From: Candidatus Eiseniibacteriota bacterium
Lineage (GTDB): Bacteria; Orphanbacterota; Orphanbacteria; Orphanbacterales; Orphanbacteraceae
Length of the DNA: 64,000 nt
Assembly: GCA_043809585.1 (NCBI GenBank)
Contig: JBDROZ010000069.1
Span: forward strand, 1-64,000
Reading direction: 5' to 3'
Part shown: piece by piece, positions 8,705 to 58,436 of the stretch
Layout of the letters: each line of letters opens with the position of its first letter
Numbering within the stretch: position 1 is the stretch's first letter
Notes under the pieces: generated by a model
Seen by the model: only the letters and a program-made list of their open reading frames with translations
The model's database searches: none
What the model was told of the DNA's origin: nothing
Translations under genes and position numbers: made by a program

Positions 8705-8739
8705 AAGTGCCCGGGCGCCATGGGCACCCGGGCACTTTT
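8705..8739. terminator. Probable bidirectional intrinsic terminator
   Basis: AAGTGCCCGGG...CCCGGGCACTTTT between convergent genes. Confidence 0.7.
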
Positions 8740-8775
8740 ACGATTATCGATCAAGCCTTCCGGCGAGTCGATTCT

Positions 8776-9051
8776 CTACCAGCGCTTGCGACCGCCGCCG
8801 CCGCCGCCGCCTTCCTCGCGCTTCTTGGCTTCGCTGACCGTCAGGTTCCGTCCACCCATCTCGACGCCGTTGAGGGCGCTCATCGCGGCCTCGGCGCCGC
8901 TGCTCATCTCCACGAAGCCGAACCCTCGGGGCCGACCGGTGTCACGGTCGGTGATCAGGTTGACCGAATCGACGCTGCCGTGCTGCTCGAACATGGCGCG
9001 CAATTCGGCTTCCGTGGCGCTGAAAGGGAGGTTTCCGACATACATCTTCAT
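8776..9051 (-). CDS. RRM RNA-binding protein with Gly-rich tail (copy 1)
   Basis: RNP2 MYVGNL, RNP1 RGFGFVEM, poly-Gly C-terminus. Confidence 0.95.
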   Translation of the reverse strand: MKMYVGNLPFSATEAELRAMFEQHGSVDSVNLITDRDTGRPRGFGFVEMSSGAEAAMSALNGVEMGGRNLTVSEAKKREEGGGGGGGRKRW

Positions 9052-9293
9052 TTCCGACTCCAATTCCATTCCGCCCCAAGATCTACAGGCTGAGCCGAGC
9101 CGGCGCCATGCCGTCGGCCCTCGGTCCGGACCGGGACTTCCGCTCTCTGCGCGATAAACCGGTTTCGGACATAGCTTCGAATCATCACTCCGGCACCATG
9201 GTTCGAATCAACGGGGGCGTAAGCGGCGAGTCGATTCGGCAGGAGGTATCCATCGCTATGCCCTAATTATCGTCAAAATCCTTCTCCAGTCAA
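9052..9293 (-). promoter_or_regulatory. Conserved RRM 5' leader plus sigma70-like promoter (copy 1)
   Basis: TTGACT (9293-9288)-N16-GATAAT. The 22-nt box at 9224-9245 is identical to 56059-56080. Confidence 0.7.
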
Positions 9294-22675: not shown

Positions 22676-23192
22676 CGCTATCCCGGGGCGGCCGGGGCGA
22701 TCACCACCCTACTCTAATTGTAGCACTCTTCCCGGTCCCCTTCCCGTCCGGACCCTCCGGGAGGGCCGGATGCAACTCTTTGATCGTCGATGGTTTAGGT
22801 CGCCCGCGATCTTCTGTCGACCAAGCCCCCGGGTGGGGCGCTACCCCCGGGGGGGCGTCGCCGGAGGGAGGAGAGGGCGGAGCCTACCCCCCGACGGGAC
22901 GATGGAAATCAGAGCCCCTCTCCCCTATAATGATAGCATTCTTGGGTGTGCAAATTCTGACCATATTCGTATAGACCGACCAAACCCCGGCCGAGATAGC
23001 CCGAGGACCGCGAGGTCCGACGGCGAACCGTAAGGCCCAAGGCGGCGCGCACCGTCCACGCCTGGAGTTGATCGCACGTCTCGTTTCGCGATCGTCGTGA
23101 TCCCGGAAGGAGGCTCGGTGGAGGAATGCCCCGTGTCCGGCGAGGGCCCGCGGCGTTTCCTCTCGCGACGTCTATCCAGAAAGGACCGCCTC

Positions 23193-26100
23193 ATGAAGCC
23201 CCATCCCCTGTTCCCGGCAGCACTCCTCTTCGCCGCTCTGCTCCTCGCCACCTCCGGCTTCGCCGTGACCCACACGTACACGGACGGCTGGGCCGACGCC
23301 GGTCTCCATGTCACGGGACAAGGCGTCGCCGGCGTGGATCTCACCTTCTCTCTCACCGTCTGGGACCAGGGGGAGATGGAACTCGAGGGGCGGTCGATGC
23401 AGACCGTGGGGGTTCCCGGCCTGCCGCTGCCGGGGGAGGCGGGCGCACCGAACCTACCGGGGATGAGCCGGTTCATCGCCGTTCCGAATGGGGCGGAGGT
23501 CTACGTCCGCATCGTCGACTCGAGGACCGAGACCTATGCGGACGTCGAGATCGCCCCGGCACCCCGCATCCCCCGGGAGACGGAGGACGGGCCGCTGGAG
23601 TATCCGAGAAACCAGTCGATCTACGATTCGGACGAGTTCTATCCCGGCGCTCCGGTCACCCTCTCCGCCCCCCGGTTCGTGCGCGGCGTGGAATCGCGGA
23701 TGCTCGGGATCGCCCCCTTCCAGTACAACCCGGTCACCCGGGAACTGGTCGTCTACCGGGACCTTCGGGTGGAGGTGACCTTCGAGGGGGGTACGGGCGT
23801 TTTCGCTGAAGAGCGGCTCCGGAACCGCTGGTGGGAACCGATTCTCGCCGATCTCTTCGCCAACTACGAGTCGATCGGCAAGGCACCGCCGGCCCCCCGA
23901 TCCGACTCGCGCACCGACGACTTCGAGTACGTCATCATCTGCCCGGACGATCCGGCCTTCGTCGCCTGGGCGGACAGCCTGAAGCGGTGGAGGACCGAGC
24001 AGGGCATCCGGACCGGCGTGGTGACCACCGCGGACATCGGCGGCAACACGATCCCCGCGATCGAGAGCTACCTGAACAACGCCTACATGACCTGGTCCAT
24101 CCCCCCGTCCGCGGCGCTCCTCCTCGGCGACTACGGAACGACCGGCGCCCGGATCACCTCGCCGATCTGGAGCAGCTACTGCCTGTCGGACAACATCTTC
24201 GCGGACGTCGACGGCGATGATCTACCGGACATCGTCCTCGCCCGGATCACCGCCCAGAACGAGGCGGACCTCGCCAACATGATCGGGAAGATGCTGGGCT
24301 ACGAGCGGCAGCCGCCGACGGCCGCCGATTTCTACTCCAGCCCGATCATGGCGGGGGGATGGCAAACCGAGCGCTGGTTCATCCTCTGCGAGGAAGTGCT
24401 GTACGGGTACTTCGCGAACGTCCTCGGCAAGAACCCCGTGAGGGAGTACGCGATCTACTCGGGGACGCCGGGGTCGGTCTGGTCGACCGCGACCAACACC
24501 GCCACGGTGGTCAACTACTTCGGCCCGAACGGCCTCGGGTACATCCCCCAGACGCCGGCGCACCTGACCGACTGGGGGGGCAACGCCACCCGGATCAACA
24601 GCGACATCAACCGCGGGTCCTTCATGCTCCAGCATCGCGACCACGGGGCGAACGACGGCTGGGGCGAGCCGTACTACGTGACCGGCCACCTCTCCGCCCT
24701 GTCGAACGACGAGCTGACCTTCGTGTTCTCCGTCAACTGCCTGACCGGCCAGTTCAACCTGACCGGAAACTCCTTCGCCGAGGCGTTCCATCACCACGCC
24801 CGGGGAGCGCTCGGGATCATCGCCGCCACGGAAGTCTCCTACTCCTTCGTGAACGACGCGTACGTCTGGGGGATGTACGACTACATGTGGCCCGACTTCG
24901 ATCCGGGCTACGGCATCCCCGGTCCGGCCCAGGTCCTGCCCGCCTTCGCCAACGCGTCGGGCAAGTACTACCTCGAGGCGTCCTCCTGGCCGTACAACAC
25001 TACCGAGAAGACGGTGACCTACCACCTCTTCCATCATCACGGCGACGCTTTCATGACGGTCTACTCGGAGGTTCCGGAGAACTTGACCGTCTCCCACGAC
25101 GGGGCCCTTCTCTCGGGGATGGACTACTTCACCGTCACCGCCGACGGGGGCTCGTGGATCGGCCTCTCCGCGGGGGGCGAGTTCCTCGGCGCCGCTTCGG
25201 GAACGGGATCGCCGGTGAACATCACGATCCCGCCGCTGGTTTCGGGAGAGGAGCTTCTCGTGACGGTCACGAAGCAGGACCACTACCGCTACGAGCACGC
25301 CGTGACCGTCGTCCCGCCGGACGGCCCCTTCCTGATCTACGAAGGCCACTCGATCGCCGACGGGGGGGGCGACAACGACGGCGCGGCGGACGAGGGGGAG
25401 ACGATCGATCTCGAAGTGACCCTCGAGAACGTCGGAACCGAGACGGCGATCGGGGTCATCGGGGTCCTTTCGACCGCCGATCCCCACGTCACCATAATCG
25501 AGGACAATGAGAGCTTCGACGACATCCCCGCCGGCGGATTCGGCACGACCCTCTCCCCCTTCGTCGTCGAGATCCACGGCGACGCCCCGGACGGGCACTC
25601 CGCCGAGTTCCTGCTCTCCATCGCCATCGGCGATTCGGTGCGGGAGGCCTCATTCTCCGTTCCGATCGATGCGCCGCTCTTCACGGTCGCGGGGCTCCTG
25701 ATCGACGACATCTTCGGCGGCGACGGGAACGGCAACGTGAACGCCGGAGAGACGGTCAACTTCGAGGTGGTGCTCGCGAATGAAGGACACTCGGACGCGG
25801 AAATCACGAGCGCCGTCCTCACGAGCACCGAAGGGGACGTGACGATCCTGGGAGGCGACGGCGAGTGCGGGGCCCTGCCGGTCTCCGGGACCGGGTGGAT
25901 GGGGACTTTCTCCGCTTCCGTGGCCGTCGGCTGCCCCGAGCCGGCCAATCTCGCCTTCCATCTCGAGGTCACCGCCGAGAACGGATTCGTCTCCTCCCTC
26001 GATTTCGACATGCCCGTGGGGGGCTGGTTCGACGACATGGAGGAATACAGGGCGTGGAGCGTGGGCGCGCCGGACGACGACGCGTCGAGCGGGATCTGGG

Positions 26101-26888
26101 CAAGGCTCGACCCGATCGGCACGCTGCAGGACGGCCATCCCATCCAGCCGGAAGACGACCACACGCCGGGCGCCGGGACTCATTGCTACGTGACGGGGAA
26201 CGGCACCATCGGCGGGACCGCCGGCGAGAACGACGTGGACGGCGGCAAGACCACCCTCTTCACGCCCGTCTTCGATCTGTCCGACGCGGTGGGCGCCACC
26301 ATCGGCTACTGGCGGTGGTACTCCAACTCGTGGGGGAACGATCCGGACAACGACTGGTGGGACGTCGACGCGACCGCCGACGGCATGAGCTGGGAGAGCC
26401 TCGAGCACACCTCCCAGACGATCGCCGCGTGGACCGAACAGACATTCGATCTGGCGGCATACGTCCCCCTGACCGATCAGGTGCAAATCCGCTTCGTCGC
26501 CTCCGACGAAGGGAGCGGTTCCCTGGTCGAAGCGGGGGTGGACGACTTCATCCTCGCGGCGGTCCGTGTCGTCTACACGGACGTGGAGGGGGCGGAATCG
26601 GGGCCGCCGGCGAAGCTCGCCCTCGGCATGAACACGCCGAACCCGTTCAATCCGACCACGACGATCCACTTCGACCTCCCGAAGCCGGCCGTGGTGGAGC
26701 TCTCGATCTACGACATCACCGGCCGCCGCGTGGCCACGCTGGTCAGCGGGAAGCTGGAGGCGGGCCGCCACGAGGCGGTCTGGACGGGACGGGGCGTGGA
26801 CGGACAGGCGGCGGGGAGCGGCCTCTACTTCAGCCGCCTCAAGGCGGACGGCGAGACGAAGACCCGGAAGATGCTGCTCTTGAAATAA
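23193..26888 (+). CDS. Gingipain-like C25 cysteine peptidase with propeptide, Ig-like repeats and FlgD-type C-terminal domain
   Basis: GAPNLP propeptide, PFQYNP, LLLGD, HRDHG and SVNCLTG (His/Cys dyad), PNPFNP tail; signal peptide. Confidence 0.88.
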   Translation: MKPHPLFPAALLFAALLLATSGFAVTHTYTDGWADAGLHVTGQGVAGVDLTFSLTVWDQGEMELEGRSMQTVGVPGLPLPGEAGAPNLPGMSRFIAVPNGAEVYVRIVDSRTETYADVEIAPAPRIPRETEDGPLEYPRNQSIYDSDEFYPGAPVTLSAPRFVRGVESRMLGIAPFQYNPVTRELVVYRDLRVEVTFEGGTGVFAEERLRNRWWEPILADLFANYESIGKAPPAPRSDSRTDDFEYVIICPDDPAFVAWADSLKRWRTEQGIRTGVVTTADIGGNTIPAIESYLNNAYMTWSIPPSAALLLGDYGTTGARITSPIWSSYCLSDNIFADVDGDDLPDIVLARITAQNEADLANMIGKMLGYERQPPTAADFYSSPIMAGGWQTERWFILCEEVLYGYFANVLGKNPVREYAIYSGTPGSVWSTATNTATVVNYFGPNGLGYIPQTPAHLTDWGGNATRINSDINRGSFMLQHRDHGANDGWGEPYYVTGHLSALSNDELTFVFSVNCLTGQFNLTGNSFAEAFHHHARGALGIIAATEVSYSFVNDAYVWGMYDYMWPDFDPGYGIPGPAQVLPAFANASGKYYLEASSWPYNTTEKTVTYHLFHHHGDAFMTVYSEVPENLTVSHDGALLSGMDYFTVTADGGSWIGLSAGGEFLGAASGTGSPVNITIPPLVSGEELLVTVTKQDHYRYEHAVTVVPPDGPFLIYEGHSIADGGGDNDGAADEGETIDLEVTLENVGTETAIGVIGVLSTADPHVTIIEDNESFDDIPAGGFGTTLSPFVVEIHGDAPDGHSAEFLLSIAIGDSVREASFSVPIDAPLFTVAGLLIDDIFGGDGNGNVNAGETVNFEVVLANEGHSDAEITSAVLTSTEGDVTILGGDGECGALPVSGTGWMGTFSASVAVGCPEPANLAFHLEVTAENGFVSSLDFDMPVGGWFDDMEEYRAWSVGAPDDDASSGIWARLDPIGTLQDGHPIQPEDDHTPGAGTHCYVTGNGTIGGTAGENDVDGGKTTLFTPVFDLSDAVGATIGYWRWYSNSWGNDPDNDWWDVDATADGMSWESLEHTSQTIAAWTEQTFDLAAYVPLTDQVQIRFVASDEGSGSLVEAGVDDFILAAVRVVYTDVEGAESGPPAKLALGMNTPNPFNPTTTIHFDLPKPAVVELSIYDITGRRVATLVSGKLEAGRHEAVWTGRGVDGQAAGSGLYFSRLKADGETKTRKMLLLK

Positions 26889-27181: not shown

Positions 27182-27466
27182 CTACCAGCGGTCGCGCCGG
27201 CCGCCCCCACCGCCGCCCCGGCTGTCGTTCCGGGCCCGCGCCTCGCTGACGTTCAGAGCCCGCCCGCCCATATCCGTGCCGTTCAAGGCCTGGATCGCCG
27301 CGTTCGCCTCGGCGTCGTCCATCTGGACGAAACCGAAACCGCGGGGACGGCCCGTGTCGCGGTCCATGATCACGTTGACCTCGTGAACCGTGCCGTGCTG
27401 GGAGAAAAGCTCGCGGAGCTCTTCCTCGGTGGCGCTGAAGGGAAGGTTACCGACATACAGTTTCAT
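27182..27466 (-). CDS. RRM RNA-binding protein (copy 2)
   Basis: [14 protein letters not shown], Gly-rich tail. Confidence 0.95.
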
Positions 27467-27717
27467 AGCCGTCAATACTCCGTTTCGCCCTGAACAGTAG
27501 ACCTACCGGGCGATCTCTCGTCGCGGACCATCCGCGCCTGGAGAACTCGCCGGAACAATCGATCCGCTTCCGGACCTGCCGGTCCTTCGGCGAATCGGGG
27601 AACCCTTTTCCATGACCGATTGTCGATTCAGCGGGGGCGACGTCTGCGAGTCGAGTCGGTATGAGGAACCCAAAAGATTTTCCTTACTAAGGATCGCCGA
27701 TTTCAGGAAAAAGTCAA
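27467..27717 (-). promoter_or_regulatory. Conserved RRM 5' leader plus promoter (copy 2)
   Basis: 27609-27631 is 21/23 identical to 56024-56046; 27477-27490 is identical to 55895-55908; TTGACT at 27717-27712. Confidence 0.7.
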
Positions 27718-53609: not shown

Positions 53610-55427
53610 TCAGGCCGGATCGGAGAGCTTTCTCTGCTTGTCCGCCCGCTTCCGGGCGTTCTCTTCGAGTACGGACTTCCGGATCCGGATGTGGCGGGGC
53701 GTGATCTCGGCGTACTCATCCTGGTTCAGATGCTCGAGGGTTTCCTCGAGGCTCATCTTCACCGCCGGGGCAATCCGCATTTTCCGGTCCGAGCCGGCGG
53801 CGCGGAGGTTCGTCAGCTGCTTCGACTTCTGGCCGTTGACGACCATGTCCCCCTCCTTGTTCGACTCGCCGATCACCTGTCCCGCGTAGAGCTCGTCTCC
53901 GGGTTCGACGAAGAAACGGCCCCGGTCTTGGAGGGCGTCGAGGGCGAAGGCGACGGTCGGGCCTTCCGCCATGCTGATGATTCTCCCCGTCTGCCGCTGG
54001 GGCAGGCTCCCCTTGAAGTACTCGTACTGATGGAAGCGGTGGTGCATGACGATCTCGCCCCCCGTGGCGCGGAGCATCTTGCTCCGGAACCCGATGAGGC
54101 CCCGGCTCGGGATGTGGAACTCGAGCCGGCTCTGGGATTCGCCGTGCTCCATCTTGATCAGTTCCCCTTTGCGCATTGCCGCGTATTCGATCACGGTTCC
54201 CGCGTGCTCCCGGGGGATGTCGACGGTGAGCACCTCCACGGGCTCCGCTTTCTTGCCCCCGATTTCCCGGAAGATGACCCGTGGCTGGCCGACCATGAAT
54301 TCGTAGCCTTCCCGCCGCATGTTCTCCATGAGGATCGAGAGGTGGAGGATGCCCCGGCCGCTCACCTTGAAAGTGTCGCCCGTCGCCGTATCCTCGACCT
54401 GGAGCGCCACGTCCCGCTCCGCCTCGCGGATGAGGCGTTCCCGGATCTGGCGGCTCGTGACGAGTTTGCCGTCCTGTCCGAAGAAGGGGCCGTCGTTGAT
54501 CATGAAGTACATGCTGAGGGTCGGCTCGTCGACGGCGATGAGCGGCAGCGGCTCCGGGTGTTCCGGGTCGGCGAGGGTGTCGCCGATGTCGACGTTCTCC
54601 ATGCCCACCACGGCGCCGATGTCGCCGCACTCCACCGCGAGCACCTCCCGGCGCCCGAGATTGTCGAAAACGAAGAGCTGGCGCACCACGGCGCTCTCCC
54701 GGGTGCCGTCCCGCTTGAGAACGGCCACCGTGTCCTTGGCGCGGATGCGGCCCCGGACCACCCGCCCGATGCCGATCCTCCCCACGTAGTCGCTGTGGTC
54801 CATCGCCGCCACGAGCATCTGGAGAGGCCCTTCCTTCACGACCGGCGCCGGCACGTGCTGGACGATCAGGTCGAGCAGGGGGAAGAGGTTCTTCCGCTCG
54901 TCCTCGAGCTCGCCCACGGCCCAGCCCTCCCGCCCGGCGGCGTAGACGCCCCGGAAGTCGAGCTGCTCGTCCGTGGCGTTCAACTCCAGGAAGAGGTTGA
55001 AGATCTCGTCGAGCACTTCGTGAGGCCGGGCGTTCGGGCGGTCCACCTTGTTGATGACCACCACCGGCTTCAGCTCGAGCCGCAACGCCTTTTGCAGCAC
55101 GAACCGGGTCTGGGGCATGGGGCCCTCGAAAGCGTCGACCAGGAGGAGCACGCCGTCCGCCATCTTGAGCACCCGCTCCACCTCGCCGCCGAAGTCGGCA
55201 TGGCCCGGCGTGTCGATCAGGTTGATCCGGACCCCATGATAGGTGATGGCGAAGTTCTTCGCGGTGATCGTGATGCCCCGCTCCCGCTCCAGATCGCCGG
55301 AATCGAGGAACCGCTCCCGCACCTCCTGCCCCTGGCGGAAGACGTGGCACTGGCGGAGGATCTGGTCGACCAAGGTGGTCTTCCCGTGATCCACGTGGGC
55401 GATGATGGCGACGTTTCGGATCTGCAT
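53610..55427 (-). CDS. typA: Translational GTPase TypA/BipA
   Basis: [55 protein letters not shown]. Confidence 0.97.
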
Positions 55428-55553
55428 GGGCCTCACCCTCGCAGCAGGCCCTTCGGGCCGCGGAGGAGCGGAGTATAACAGCGCTCCCGGGAGGCCGTCC
55501 CCCGGAATCATCAGGACAAGGAACCGAAAAGAGGCGCGCCGGAGCGCGCACGG

Positions 55554-55580
55554 AAAAAGGGGGCGCCAAGGCGCCCCCCT
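55554..55580 (-). terminator. Intrinsic terminator of RRM copy 3
   Basis: GGGGGCGCC-tt-GGCGCCCCC followed by TTTTT on the minus strand. Confidence 0.75.
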
Positions 55581-55600
55581 CGTTCACGATGAGATTCGGG

Positions 55601-55882
55601 CTACCAGCGTTCGCGCCGGCCGCCGCCGTCGCCGCCGCCTTCGCGCTTCGGCTGGGCCTCGCTCACCTTCAGGTTCCGGCCGCCCAGGGCCACGCCGTCT
55701 ACGGCGCTGATGGCCTTGGCGCCATCGTTGTTGTCCATCTGAACGAAACCGAACCCGCGGGACTGGCCCGTGTACCGGTCGGTAATCACGTTGACTTCCT
55801 GAACGGCCCCGTGCTGGGAGAACAGGTTGCGCAGTTCGTCTTCGGTCGTGTTGAAGGACAGGTTGCCGACATACAGCTTCAT
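55601..55882 (-). CDS. RRM RNA-binding protein (copy 3)
   Basis: [14 protein letters not shown], Gly-rich tail. Confidence 0.95.
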   Translation of the reverse strand: MKLYVGNLSFNTTEDELRNLFSQHGAVQEVNVITDRYTGQSRGFGFVQMDNNDGAKAISAVDGVALGGRNLKVSEAQPKREGGGDGGGRRERW

Positions 55883-56132
55883 AACGTTCGTCTCACTCCG
55901 TTTCGCCCCTCGAGTCATTCGGCAGGGATCCGCGGCGGTGCGGTCTATCCGCGCCGTCCGAACCCCGGCATACCAGTACGAATCCAGGTCCCTCGGGACC
56001 TCGTGCATACTCTGGTGTCAGGCTCCATGACCGACGGTCGATTCAGGCGGGGCGAAATCGGCGAGTCGATTCGGCAGGAGATACCCAAAGATGTGCACAA
56101 GCAATATATCGGCATCCGCCTGAAAAAGTCAA
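55883..56132 (-). promoter_or_regulatory. Conserved RRM 5' leader plus promoter (copy 3)
   Basis: TTGACT (56132-56127)-N18-TATATT; boxes shared with copies 1 and 2; 56049-56057 is complementary to 55901-55909. Confidence 0.72.
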
Positions 56133-56348
56133 GAGCCGTTTGAAAATCAGTTTTTTGGTCCCTTTCGGGAAAGGTGGAGAAAGACCGCCCCATCCGGGGG
56201 CGCCGGGGTCTCCGGGGGCCTTCGGGGCCATCCGGAGGCCTTCGGACCGGGAGGCCGGCCGGCGCACCGGGGGGGGGGGACGGACCCTAAAATGATGTAC
56301 AATGGTCCGGTCCACCGTCTCGAAAGCCATACTATAAGGAAGGAAGAC

Positions 56349-58436
56349 ATGACCCGTCATTGCCCCCTCTTCGTCTTCGCCGCCCTCGCCGCGGCGGCCG
56401 TTGCCGTTTCGGCGCCGGCCCCGTTCGCGGGGGCGCCCGAAAGGACCCACGACCTCGTTCCGGAGGACTACTTCACCCAGGGTTTCATTTACGACTGCGC
56501 GATCTCACCGGATGGGAAGCACGTGGCCCTCACCGACCTCCGCTGGGATCTCGACGCGGACACCAGGCACACCGATGTTTGGATCGCGAACGTGAAGACG
56601 AAGGAGATTCGGCGCGTCACCTTCCACCCCGGCGGCGACGACGGCCCGGTGTGGAGCCCCGACGGCCGGTGGGTCTACTTCACGAGCGCCCGAGGCGAGG
56701 ATGACGATCCACCTCCGGAGAACGGGAAGACCCAGGTCTGGAAGGCATCGGTCGACGGCGGCGTGCCGGTGCCGGTCACCCGCTTCAAGGAGGGCGTGGA
56801 GGATTTCGCCCTGTCATCGGACGGGAAGATCCTCTACTACGTGAAGTCGAGCGAGAGGGTGGAGGACCCCTGGAAGGATCTCAAGGAGGAGTACGACGAC
56901 CTCGACTACGGAAAGGGGGTCATGAACTACAGCGAGATCTGGGCCCTCGACCTGACGACGTGGCGGACGGAGAAGCTCGTCGCCGAGAGCCGGGTCATCC
57001 AGGAGTTCGCCGTCTCCCGCGACGGGGGGCGGATCGCCATGATCACGACGCCGACGGAGGAGCTGATTACGAACGAGGGACTCTCGACGGTCGACGTCTG
57101 GGACCGGGAGGCGGGAAAAACGACCACCGTCCCCGACCGGCTCTGGCGGGACGAGGCCCCTTCTCCCTACGGATGGCTCGAGGGCCTCGCCTGGTCGGCG
57201 GACGCCTCGAAGCTCGCCTTCCGAATCGACTTCGACGGCTACCCGGCGGAGATGTTCGTCGTTCACTTCCGGGAGGGGGAGGAGCCGGCGCCCCGCAAGC
57301 TCCGGCGACCCGGCGAGTTCTCCCTCGGCGGGGAGCCGGACATCCGGTGGATCGGAGAGTCCGACGACCTCTGCTTCATCTCCGAGGAGAGGGCCCGGGC
57401 GCGGGTGGCGGTGATCCGGAATATCAGCCGGGGGTCGCAGGGAAAGTACGAGATCCTGACGCCGGGCGACTGGGTGGCCAAGACCTTCGACCTGACGCCG
57501 GACGGGGGGGTCCTCGCGGCGGCCCTCGGCGACGTGACGGAGCCGAACGACGTGTTCGTCACCTCCACGAAAGGGAAGCCGAAGCTCGAGCGGATCACCC
57601 GCATCAATCCTCAGATCGCCTCGTGGCGGATCCCGAAGATCGAAGTCGTGAAATGGGCCGGCGCGAACGGAGATACGGTGGAGGGGATCCTGGAACTCCC
57701 GTTCGGCTACGAGCCCGGCACGGCGCTCCCCCTGCACGTCGCCCTTCACGGGGGTCCGACGGCGGCGGACCTGCTCTACCTCGAGTTCTGGATCTACGGC
57801 CGCGGCCTCTGGCCCTCCCTCGGGTGGGCGGTCTTCTCCCCGAATTACCGGGGCTCCACCGGATTCGGGGACCGGTTCCTGACCGAGCTCATCGGCGCCG
57901 AGTGCCGCATCGAGGTGGAGGACGTGCTGAAGGGCGTCGACATGCTCGTCGAGAAGGGCATCGCCGATCCGGAGCGGATGGCAGTCTCGGGGTGGAGCAA
58001 CGGTGGGCTCGTGACGAACTGCATCATCACCCAGACGGACCGGTTCAAGGCGGCGTCGACCGGCGCGGGGGTTCTCGACATGGCCCTCCAGTGGGGAATC
58101 GAGGACACGCCGGGGCACGTGATCAATTTCATGGAGGGGTTGCCGTGGGAGAAGGCCGAGGACTACATCGAGGCCTCCCCCCTCTGGTCTCTCGACAAAG
58201 TCAAGACACCGACCCTCATCCACGTGGGGGGGAATGACCCCCGGGTTCCCCCGGCCCACTCGAAGGCGCTCTTCCGGGCCCTCGACTTCTACCTTGGCGT
58301 CCCCTCCGAACTCGTCATCTACCCCGGCCAGGGGCACGGTCTGAGCAAGTACACCCACCGCCTCGCGAAGATGAAGTGGGACATCGCCTGGTTCGACCAT
58401 TACGTGCTCGGCAAGCCGATGGAGGGGCCGGAGTAG
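56349..58436 (+). CDS. S9 family (prolyl oligopeptidase/acylaminoacyl) peptidase
   Basis: WD40/TolB-like propeller, HGGP, PNYRGSTGFG, GWSNGG, DPRVP, GHG. Confidence 0.93.
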   Translation: MTRHCPLFVFAALAAAAVAVSAPAPFAGAPERTHDLVPEDYFTQGFIYDCAISPDGKHVALTDLRWDLDADTRHTDVWIANVKTKEIRRVTFHPGGDDGPVWSPDGRWVYFTSARGEDDDPPPENGKTQVWKASVDGGVPVPVTRFKEGVEDFALSSDGKILYYVKSSERVEDPWKDLKEEYDDLDYGKGVMNYSEIWALDLTTWRTEKLVAESRVIQEFAVSRDGGRIAMITTPTEELITNEGLSTVDVWDREAGKTTTVPDRLWRDEAPSPYGWLEGLAWSADASKLAFRIDFDGYPAEMFVVHFREGEEPAPRKLRRPGEFSLGGEPDIRWIGESDDLCFISEERARARVAVIRNISRGSQGKYEILTPGDWVAKTFDLTPDGGVLAAALGDVTEPNDVFVTSTKGKPKLERITRINPQIASWRIPKIEVVKWAGANGDTVEGILELPFGYEPGTALPLHVALHGGPTAADLLYLEFWIYGRGLWPSLGWAVFSPNYRGSTGFGDRFLTELIGAECRIEVEDVLKGVDMLVEKGIADPERMAVSGWSNGGLVTNCIITQTDRFKAASTGAGVLDMALQWGIEDTPGHVINFMEGLPWEKAEDYIEASPLWSLDKVKTPTLIHVGGNDPRVPPAHSKALFRALDFYLGVPSELVIYPGQGHGLSKYTHRLAKMKWDIAWFDHYVLGKPMEGPE

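Follow-up and report, generated by a model that had tools for sequence, protein, structure and literature searches.

Introduction

To our knowledge, RRM proteins are widespread among bacteria, and their RNA targets and own regulation are largely unknown. Cyanobacteria are not known to have CspA, and Ehira, Ohmori and Sato reportedly described in 2005 that the 5' UTR of the cold-induced cyanobacterial RRM gene rbpA1 is involved in low-temperature transcript accumulation. The leader presented here, from an organism that is not a cyanobacterium, can be likened to that of rbpA1 in that a 5' UTR stands on an RRM gene.

In Bacteroides thetaiotaomicron, the RRM-1 paralogues rbpA, rbpB, and rbpC have 5' UTRs of 122-155 nt, support cold adaptation, and are under negative auto- and cross-regulation, for which the 5' UTR is partly responsible; a thermosensor role of these UTRs is left open in that preprint (bioRxiv 2026, PMC13370968). 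Our locus resembles this system in having several paralogous small RRM-1 genes with long 5' UTRs, and it differs in that the Bacteroides work is experimental genetics without a defined RNA motif, whereas here, in another phylum, a covariation-supported motif is known from sequence. The Chlorobi-RRM motif (RF01697) lies upstream of RRM-domain genes, as its published description has it (Weinberg et al., 2010; PMC2864571), and is thus likewise a candidate cis-regulatory RNA upstream of RRM genes in one bacterial lineage; structures aside, the leader studied here is set apart from it by the lack of a covariance-model match and by the taxon. According to the discussion in PMC13370968, the 5' UTR of the E. 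coli cspA mRNA serves as a thermosensor and in CspA autoregulation. The likeness to cspA is that a long leader stands on a gene for a cold-shock-type RNA-binding protein, with regulation (here proposed) after transcription start, but the protein is of the RRM and not the CSD type, the leader has no Rfam match, and no temperature-dependent refolding is predicted for it. Finally, the E. coli ribosomal protein L20 represses its own mRNA (rpmI-rplT) through a pseudoknot and a second stem-loop near the ribosome-binding site, as outlined in PMC1888825. As in the L20, S15, and S4 operators, our leader holds a conserved RNA structure in a gene's own leader, adjoining the ribosome-binding site, and by analogy it would most plausibly work like an L20-type operator, although L20 is a ribosomal protein and a case of rRNA mimicry, and its operator has no sequence or family relation to the RRM leader.

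In this study, we describe a leader carried by three RRM genes in a window of 64,000 nt (G000:C69:1-64000; 66% G+C) and by their relatives in other genomes. Its kind, a leader regulating an RNA-binding-protein gene, is known, but as an RNA family it is new, and it is confined to one small bacterial lineage that is uncultured as far as the present data show.

RRM genes and promoters of the window

The window, drawn from a home genome of 4.24 Mb, holds three monocistronic RRM_1 genes, all on the minus strand: copy 1 at 8776-9051 (91 aa), copy 2 at 27182-27466 (94 aa), and copy 3 at 55601-55882 (93 aa; ATG at 55882-55880). Their products of 91-94 aa match the RRM_1 domain with E values from 6.9e-20 to 4.8e-23, and against protein clusters the copy 3 protein matches generic RRM clusters of several phyla only. 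A terminator-like hairpin lies 3' of the stop codon in each gene. That of copy 3, read from the sequence, comprises a hairpin and T run at 55553-55580 (minus strand), next to a second terminator-like site at 55551-55534 (minus) listed by the site scan; that of copy 1 lies at about 8707-8735 (minus). Among the neighbors is a plus-strand gene (23097-26888) for a 1263-aa protein with a Peptidase_C25 (gingipain family) domain, a propeptide, and a C-terminal FlgD_ig domain, which is convergent with RRM copy 2.

The first-pass annotation had noted a TTGACT -35 hexamer upstream of all three genes, and we find it 242, 251, and 250 nt before the ATG of copies 1, 2, and 3, respectively. The copy 1 promoter (9266-9293, minus) consists of TTGACT at 9293-9288, a 16-nt spacer, and the -10 GATAAT at 9271-9266; copy 2 combines TTGACT at 27712-27717 (minus) with a weak -10, GATCCT (3/6 matches); and copy 3 (56103-56132, minus) has TTGACT at 56132-56127, an 18-nt spacer, and TATATT at 56108-56103. 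The last of these was called by a promoter scan with 10/12 matches (one site vs. 0.1 expected) and sets a predicted transcription start near 56096. Judged by these hexamers, the RRM promoters of the window are sigma-70-like. A plus-strand S9 peptidase gene (56292-58436) is divergent from copy 3, and a run of 11 C (minus strand) at 56269-56279 lies between it and the RRM promoter.

The same arrangement recurs in related leaders. A TTGAY hexamer stands at a fixed distance from the conserved block in 30/30 leaders, accompanied in 26/30 by a -10 with at least 4/6 matches at 16-18 nt spacing. Because promoter position is conserved, the predicted transcription start falls a few bases before the conserved block, and this prediction places it upstream of the shared boxes in all 30 leaders, rather than downstream of them, where it would have spoken against a leader RNA.

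A conserved 5' domain and its distribution

The sequence boxes reported at first pass are as described. Copies 1 and 3 are identical over 22/22 nt (9245-9224 and 56080-56059), copies 2 and 3 match at 21/23 nt (27631-27609 and 56046-56024) and have GGGCGAAACGGAGT in common (14/14 nt), a GAATCGA-like word occurs twice in each leader, and the middle of the leader is unalignable while the boxes stay conserved. When the copy 3 leader was compared by blastn with the whole home genome, the only matches besides itself were the other two copies of the window and one more RRM leader, located on a different contig (E values to the other leaders 1.4e-11, 2.4e-8, and 1.9e-6), and the 13-mer GAATCGACTCGCC has four occurrences in the genome, all at RRM genes; the similarity of the leaders is therefore not due to chance.

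The leader is about 210 nt long and consists of a conserved 5' domain of about 90 nt, a diverging middle, and a conserved G-box before the Shine-Dalgarno (SD) sequence. After the start the order of elements is (U)CCUCCU, box 1, C-box, box 2, UCGGU, and GGAG, followed by GGUUCCCGAG or, in one subgroup of leaders, by GAUUCGAAGCUAU in its place. Over the leaders, the consensus is GCCGAAUCGACUCRCCG for box 1, (UU/UA)CGCCCC for the C-box, and UGAWUCGA for box 2, and the 5' CCUCCU equals the core of the 16S 3' end. Beyond the 5' domain, the leaders are unalignable for about 90-120 nt, apart from GC-rich hairpins, until the last conserved element, GGGGCGRAA(C/U)GGAG, which is followed by the SD and the start codon. 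The 5' domain was captured in a 92-nt covariance model, R1, built from 30 leaders. In copy 3 it spans 56001-56092 on the minus strand (R1 match 84.3 bits, E 5.9e-21) and includes, on the same strand, the CCUCCU-like CUCCU (56080-56076), box 1 GCCGAATCGACTCGCCG (56075-56059), box 2 TGAATCGA (56045-56038), TCGGT (56034-56030), and GGAG (56026-56023); the variable middle, with GC-rich local hairpins that are unalignable between paralogues, follows at 55910-56000 (minus). The corresponding minus-strand domains of copies 2 and 1 lie at 27586-27677 (75 bits) and 9166-9257 (79.3 bits).

The phylum is represented in our collection by 10 genomes, nine of one family (f1, G000-G008) and one of a second family. 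R1 has 27 matches in the f1 genomes, 26 of them upstream of RRM genes; it occurs in 9/9 of these genomes and across six genera. The family has 37 RRM matches in all, with 2-7 RRM genes per genome. The second-family genome has neither an R1 match nor an RRM gene, and R1 found none in the 142 further genomes of the 151 searched. A pattern scan of metagenome contigs returned 14 stretches, 6 of them chance matches and 8 true leaders, of which 7 have an RRM start downstream and 1 is truncated where its contig stops; two have the same sequence as a leader of G004, and five further distinct leaders were gained. A 14-base box 1 pattern matched at least 120 metagenome stretches, with no RRM gene downstream among the matches listed, and looser patterns for further copies of the module in the home genome gave known RRM sites and likely chance matches only. 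The distribution is thus narrow: one family, nine genomes, and a few metagenome contigs.

Within the home genome, the leader stands on five of six RRM genes. The motif-bearing RRM genes form one protein subfamily with the N-terminus MK[LIM]Y[VI]GNL, and those free of the motif belong to other subfamilies, with the N-termini MxK[RT]IYVGNL or MKNIYVGNL.

A long-range helix next to the ribosome-binding site

The complementarity first seen in copy 3, between TTTCGCCCC (56057-56049) and GGGGCGAAA (55909-55901) 145 nt downstream, is present as described. The 5' strand of this helix is the C-box UUUCGCCCC (56049-56057, minus) and its 3' strand the G-box GGGGCGAAA (55901-55909, minus), which lies directly 5' of CGGAG (GGAG at 55899-55896). 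Copy 2 has the C-box UCGCCCC at 27640-27634 and the G-box GGGCGA at 27485-27490, then AACGGAG (GGAG at 27481-27478), and copy 1 has the C-box core CGCCCC at 9219-9214 and the G-box GGGGCG at 9072-9077, with its Shine-Dalgarno GGAG at 9061-9058, all on the minus strand. Across leaders the C-box and G-box are 87-154 nt apart, and the 3' strand of the helix is directly 5' of CGGAG or the SD in 30/30.

Both-sided changes, folding, and the energies of cognate pairs support the CGCCCC/GGGGCG pairing that the first-pass annotation had put forward, and the covariation that it had called for is found in this helix. In a MAFFT alignment of 30 full leaders (A4), 5/8 C-box/G-box pairs change on both sides, against a mean of 1.0 in 500 shuffles, none of which reaches this number; the covariation score is 0.164 vs. 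0.093 in shuffles (0/500), and 84.6% of helix cells are paired vs. 36-61% when the partner is slid. Three rows of A4 are misaligned at one box, which counts against the helix, and an earlier alignment of 25 leaders gave the same picture. The six core positions were also tabulated, by anchor, for 29 distinct box pairs; pairing is kept in 27, 29, 29, 29, 29, and 25 of these, position by position. Swaps from one Watson-Crick pair to another occur at four core positions, with G-U intermediates: C-G to A-U at position 0 (L012, L013), and C-G to U-A at position 2 (L016, L036, with a U-G intermediate in L031), position 3 (L034), and position 5 (L017, L037). These swaps are spread over different genomes and groups of paralogues. 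Because of the relatedness of the leaders, shuffle statistics overstate independence, and the separate compensatory changes at four positions are therefore the firmer argument.

Energies agree with this picture. Within a leader, pairing of the C-box region with the pre-SD region averages -21.7 kcal/mol vs. -19.7 when partners are swapped (0/20,000 permutations); in a comparison with the same region of 1500 other genes, the values are -14.4 vs. -9.9 kcal/mol. When each of the 30 leaders is folded by itself, the partition function yields an average helix P of 0.79 at 37°C; the helix contributes -5.7 kcal/mol to the ensemble energy on average and is favorable in 28/30. We consider both the helix and a cis-regulatory role of the leader very probable.

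Two other accounts of the conserved boxes bear on the same evidence and, like the riboswitch considered below, fit the data poorly. The boxes might be functionless similarity left over from recent gene duplication, and the restriction of the motif to one protein subfamily does mean that the leaders share ancestry; but the middle has diverged beyond alignment while the boxes are conserved, double compensatory changes keep the helix, and the motif persists across the six genera, so that this explanation, in effect already refuted by covariation, is next to impossible. Alternatively, the GAATCGA words could be operator half-sites for a transcription factor in the DNA downstream of the promoter, as two such words stand about 29 bp apart at approximately +25 to +60 in every copy. 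Against this, the C-box shows compensatory changes with a box at a distance of 87-154 nt, and such a constraint acts on the RNA; the exchange of G-U for A-U or G-C at many positions is specific to one strand; and one copy lies in a 3' UTR. We consider a DNA operator very improbable.

With the start predicted upstream of the boxes and covariation in the helix, the comparison with Rfam remained. At gathering score, none of the 4227 families of Rfam 15 scanned, tRNA included, matches anywhere in the 64-kb window. Over 55500-56300 there are eight weak matches at E up to 10, and Chlorobi-RRM (RF01697) is not among them; the cspA-leader model has no match either in the window at gathering score or at the copy 3 locus to E 10. 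In a search of the literature, PMC5737381, PMC8632094, and PMC11109978 included, Chlorobi-RRM was the only published motif found on RRM genes. The initial description as a conserved structured leader and candidate new cis-regulatory RNA therefore stands on all three counts.

Local folding of the leader

A local hairpin, CUCC..CCGA..UCGA..UCR / UGA..UCGA..UCGG..GGAG, is predicted by RNAalifold; its apical loop would contain the C-box, so that a pseudoknot would result together with the long-range helix. The pseudoknot of the L20 operator is also long-range; in the RRM leader the pseudoknot is a prediction only. Cells of the local hairpin are paired at 92.7%, and its stems hardly vary: 1/16 pairs changes on both sides, as in 474/500 shuffles, so that covariation is not above that of the shuffles. 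The data allow a local hairpin around the C-box, and we take it as probable.

Other pairings fared less well. The CGACUC/GAGUCG pairing proposed for copy 1 at first pass is at chance level over the leaders, although the two words are complementary in copy 1. Nested folding pairs box 1 with the region from the SD to the AUG (P 0.48-0.61), but box 1 was rejected as a partner of this region, as over 30 leaders it pairs at -9.9 kcal/mol with its own ribosome-binding region vs. -11.2 kcal/mol with the regions of 1500 control genes. The 5' CCUCCU was likewise rejected as an anti-SD in cis, having no consistent folding partner (0.48 unpaired, 0.12 with the SD region). When the long-range helix was forced or forbidden, the predicted accessibility from SD to AUG stayed the same, at 0.44 vs. 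0.45 (Wilcoxon p 0.74).

Relatives of the 5' domain and the cold-shock context

The 27th R1 match lies in the home genome on contig C78 (27 bits, E 6.4e-4 for the genome) and is a diverged 5' domain in the leader, about 190 nt long (L218:1408-1600, minus), of a fatty-acid desaturase gene (PF00487, E 1.4e-34). The promoter of this leader, TTGACC-16-TATATT, is upstream of the R1 match, and the flanks of the domain are close to those of window copy 2. Where RRM leaders have the C-box loop, this domain forms the closed stem GCCC-ACC-GGGC (P 0.87), and its minimum-free-energy fold includes the outer stems of the hairpin model. The desaturase copy was found in one of three family genomes with this desaturase, namely the home genome; with search filters off, the desaturases of G001 and G005 have no motif upstream. 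In G001 the gene immediately downstream of the desaturase gene, and read in the same direction, is a motif-bearing RRM gene.

A small-molecule riboswitch would also present a conserved 5' domain with long-range or pseudoknot pairing and no Rfam match. However, unlike riboswitches, this motif is associated with paralogues of an RNA-binding protein and one desaturase rather than with genes of one metabolic or transport pathway. Nor did we find a multi-stem junction supported by covariation, and we consider this explanation extremely improbable.

Six RRM genes in four genomes, all of one subgroup, have a miniature of the 5' domain immediately 3' of the stop codon. It has the form AUCGACUCGCC-tetraloop-GGCUUGAUCGAU, folds as a hairpin in minimum-free-energy prediction, and precedes the terminator; in copy 1 it is AAUCGACUCGCC-GGAA-GGCUUGAUCGAU at 8746-8773 (minus), 5' of the terminator hairpin given above. 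Both the desaturase and the 3'-UTR versions keep the module without the C-box, which suggests that the module is recognized as a unit. It could be asked whether the element determines mRNA stability or processing, by protecting the 5' end from nucleases or guiding cleavage, with the 3'-UTR copy acting likewise. The conserved domain does start only a few nucleotides from the predicted 5' end, and the related hairpin sits just before the terminator. Nothing identifies a nuclease site, however, and the G-box adjoins the ribosome-binding site in 30/30 leaders, which points to translation initiation; a stability or processing element is in our opinion decidedly improbable.

The genes and their surroundings have several ties to cold adaptation. 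Desaturase genes are a classic cold-induced gene class, and typA/bipA encodes a cold-related ribosome-assembly GTPase in E. coli. A typA/bipA gene (GTP_EFTU and BipA_C domains; 53610-55427, minus) is found directly downstream of the copy 3 terminator, in the same orientation, and loss of bipA renders E. coli cold-sensitive, as stated in PMC6962249. The cold-shock domain PF00313 was found in one of the nine f1 genomes (G005), whereas the same search was positive in 10/14 control genomes.

Some of these ties also count for a protein-independent RNA thermosensor like that of the cspA mRNA, in which the helix would form in one of two temperature states and alter translation or mRNA stability. A long leader stands on probable cold-shock genes in a family in which no cold-shock-domain gene was found in 8/9 genomes, and a homologous 5' domain lies upstream of a desaturase, that is, a gene of a cold-induced class. 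A 5'-UTR role in cold accumulation is also reported for cyanobacterial rbpA1, and cspA itself provides a precedent (in the account given by PMC13370968). On the other hand, equilibrium folding shows no temperature switch: from 37°C to 15°C the P of the helix goes from 0.79 to 0.71 and the unpaired probability of the SD region from 0.36 to 0.32. The primary-sequence conservation of the 5' domain exceeds what a thermometer needs, and copies of the module are also found in 3' UTRs, in which translational thermosensing would serve no purpose. The leader also differs from the ROSE and fourU thermometers in that no short hairpin pairs directly with the SD; the supported helix ends 5' of it. Taken together, we think a protein-independent thermosensor unlikely. 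A function as thermosensor or autoregulator, as proposed at first pass, is putative.

Proposed mechanism and significance

The reading that we prefer is translational control with a protein as partner. On the sequence evidence, the leader most likely serves to control the translation of cold-shock-type RRM proteins, as a lineage-specific cis-regulatory element of about 210 nt that acts on the small RRM genes after transcription starts, and we put the chance of the explanation as a whole, set out below, somewhat above even. In this proposal, the long-range helix would dock the 5' domain onto the ribosome-binding site. Conservation of this domain goes far beyond the needs of pairing, and the domain recurs without the C-box in 3' UTRs and in the desaturase leader, so that a trans-acting factor probably binds there. 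The RRM proteins themselves are the most probable candidates, which would give negative auto- and cross-regulation among the paralogues. The cold-shock surroundings of the genes and the precedent of the Bacteroides rbp genes speak for this reading. Against it stand the unchanged predicted accessibility from SD to AUG, the covariation of the local hairpin at the level of shuffles, the presence of the desaturase copy in one of three genomes, and the fact that RRM domains usually bind single strands, so that a hairpin module is not the first target to expect. Such RRM feedback is our leading idea for the mechanism, although, drawn as it is from comparative sequence data, we advance it tentatively and at slightly less than even chances. 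Temperature may contribute through the stability of the helix, as an additional or an alternative input.

We assume that the RRM proteins probably stand in for cold-shock chaperones of the CspA type, which are mostly missing in this lineage. A bolder extension is that the hairpin module (…CCGAAUCGACUC…UGAAUCGA…UCGG…) is the natural specific RNA target of these RRM proteins and defines a small cold-shock regulon. We regard this extension as doubtful. If true, there would be a post-transcriptional regulon made up of RRM paralogues and a membrane desaturase, with CspA replaced by RRM proteins in a candidate phylum, and the C-box/G-box helix would dock the protein-bound module, making a long-range pseudoknot operator independent of those of ribosomal proteins.

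The Bacteroides work of 2026 describes 5'-UTR feedback without a named RNA element (PMC13370968), and the present leader supplies a defined motif. It is a concrete candidate for an RRM ligand and operator, with a covariation-supported helix, 3'-UTR copies, and a desaturase copy, and it points to the replacement of CspA by RRM proteins in a barely sampled phylum.

Other RRM loci of the lineage

Some RRM genes of the family are arranged in tandem (G007:C126 and G008:C394; loci L019, L025, and L026). At G007:C126 the second RRM gene, separated from the first by a short spacer, lacks its own 5' domain, and at G008:C394 three RRM genes lie inside 8 kb.

RRM genes with the N-termini MKRIYVGNL or MTKIYVGNL have in common a second, different conserved leader, seen at G000:C28 (L007), G004:C9 (L038), and G008:C207 (L057). 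Its blocks include GGGTGCNCTAC, CAGGTGTCYG, and TCCTCTCG, with ACGYCGACTC directly before the SD, and it may represent a second leader family in the same lineage.
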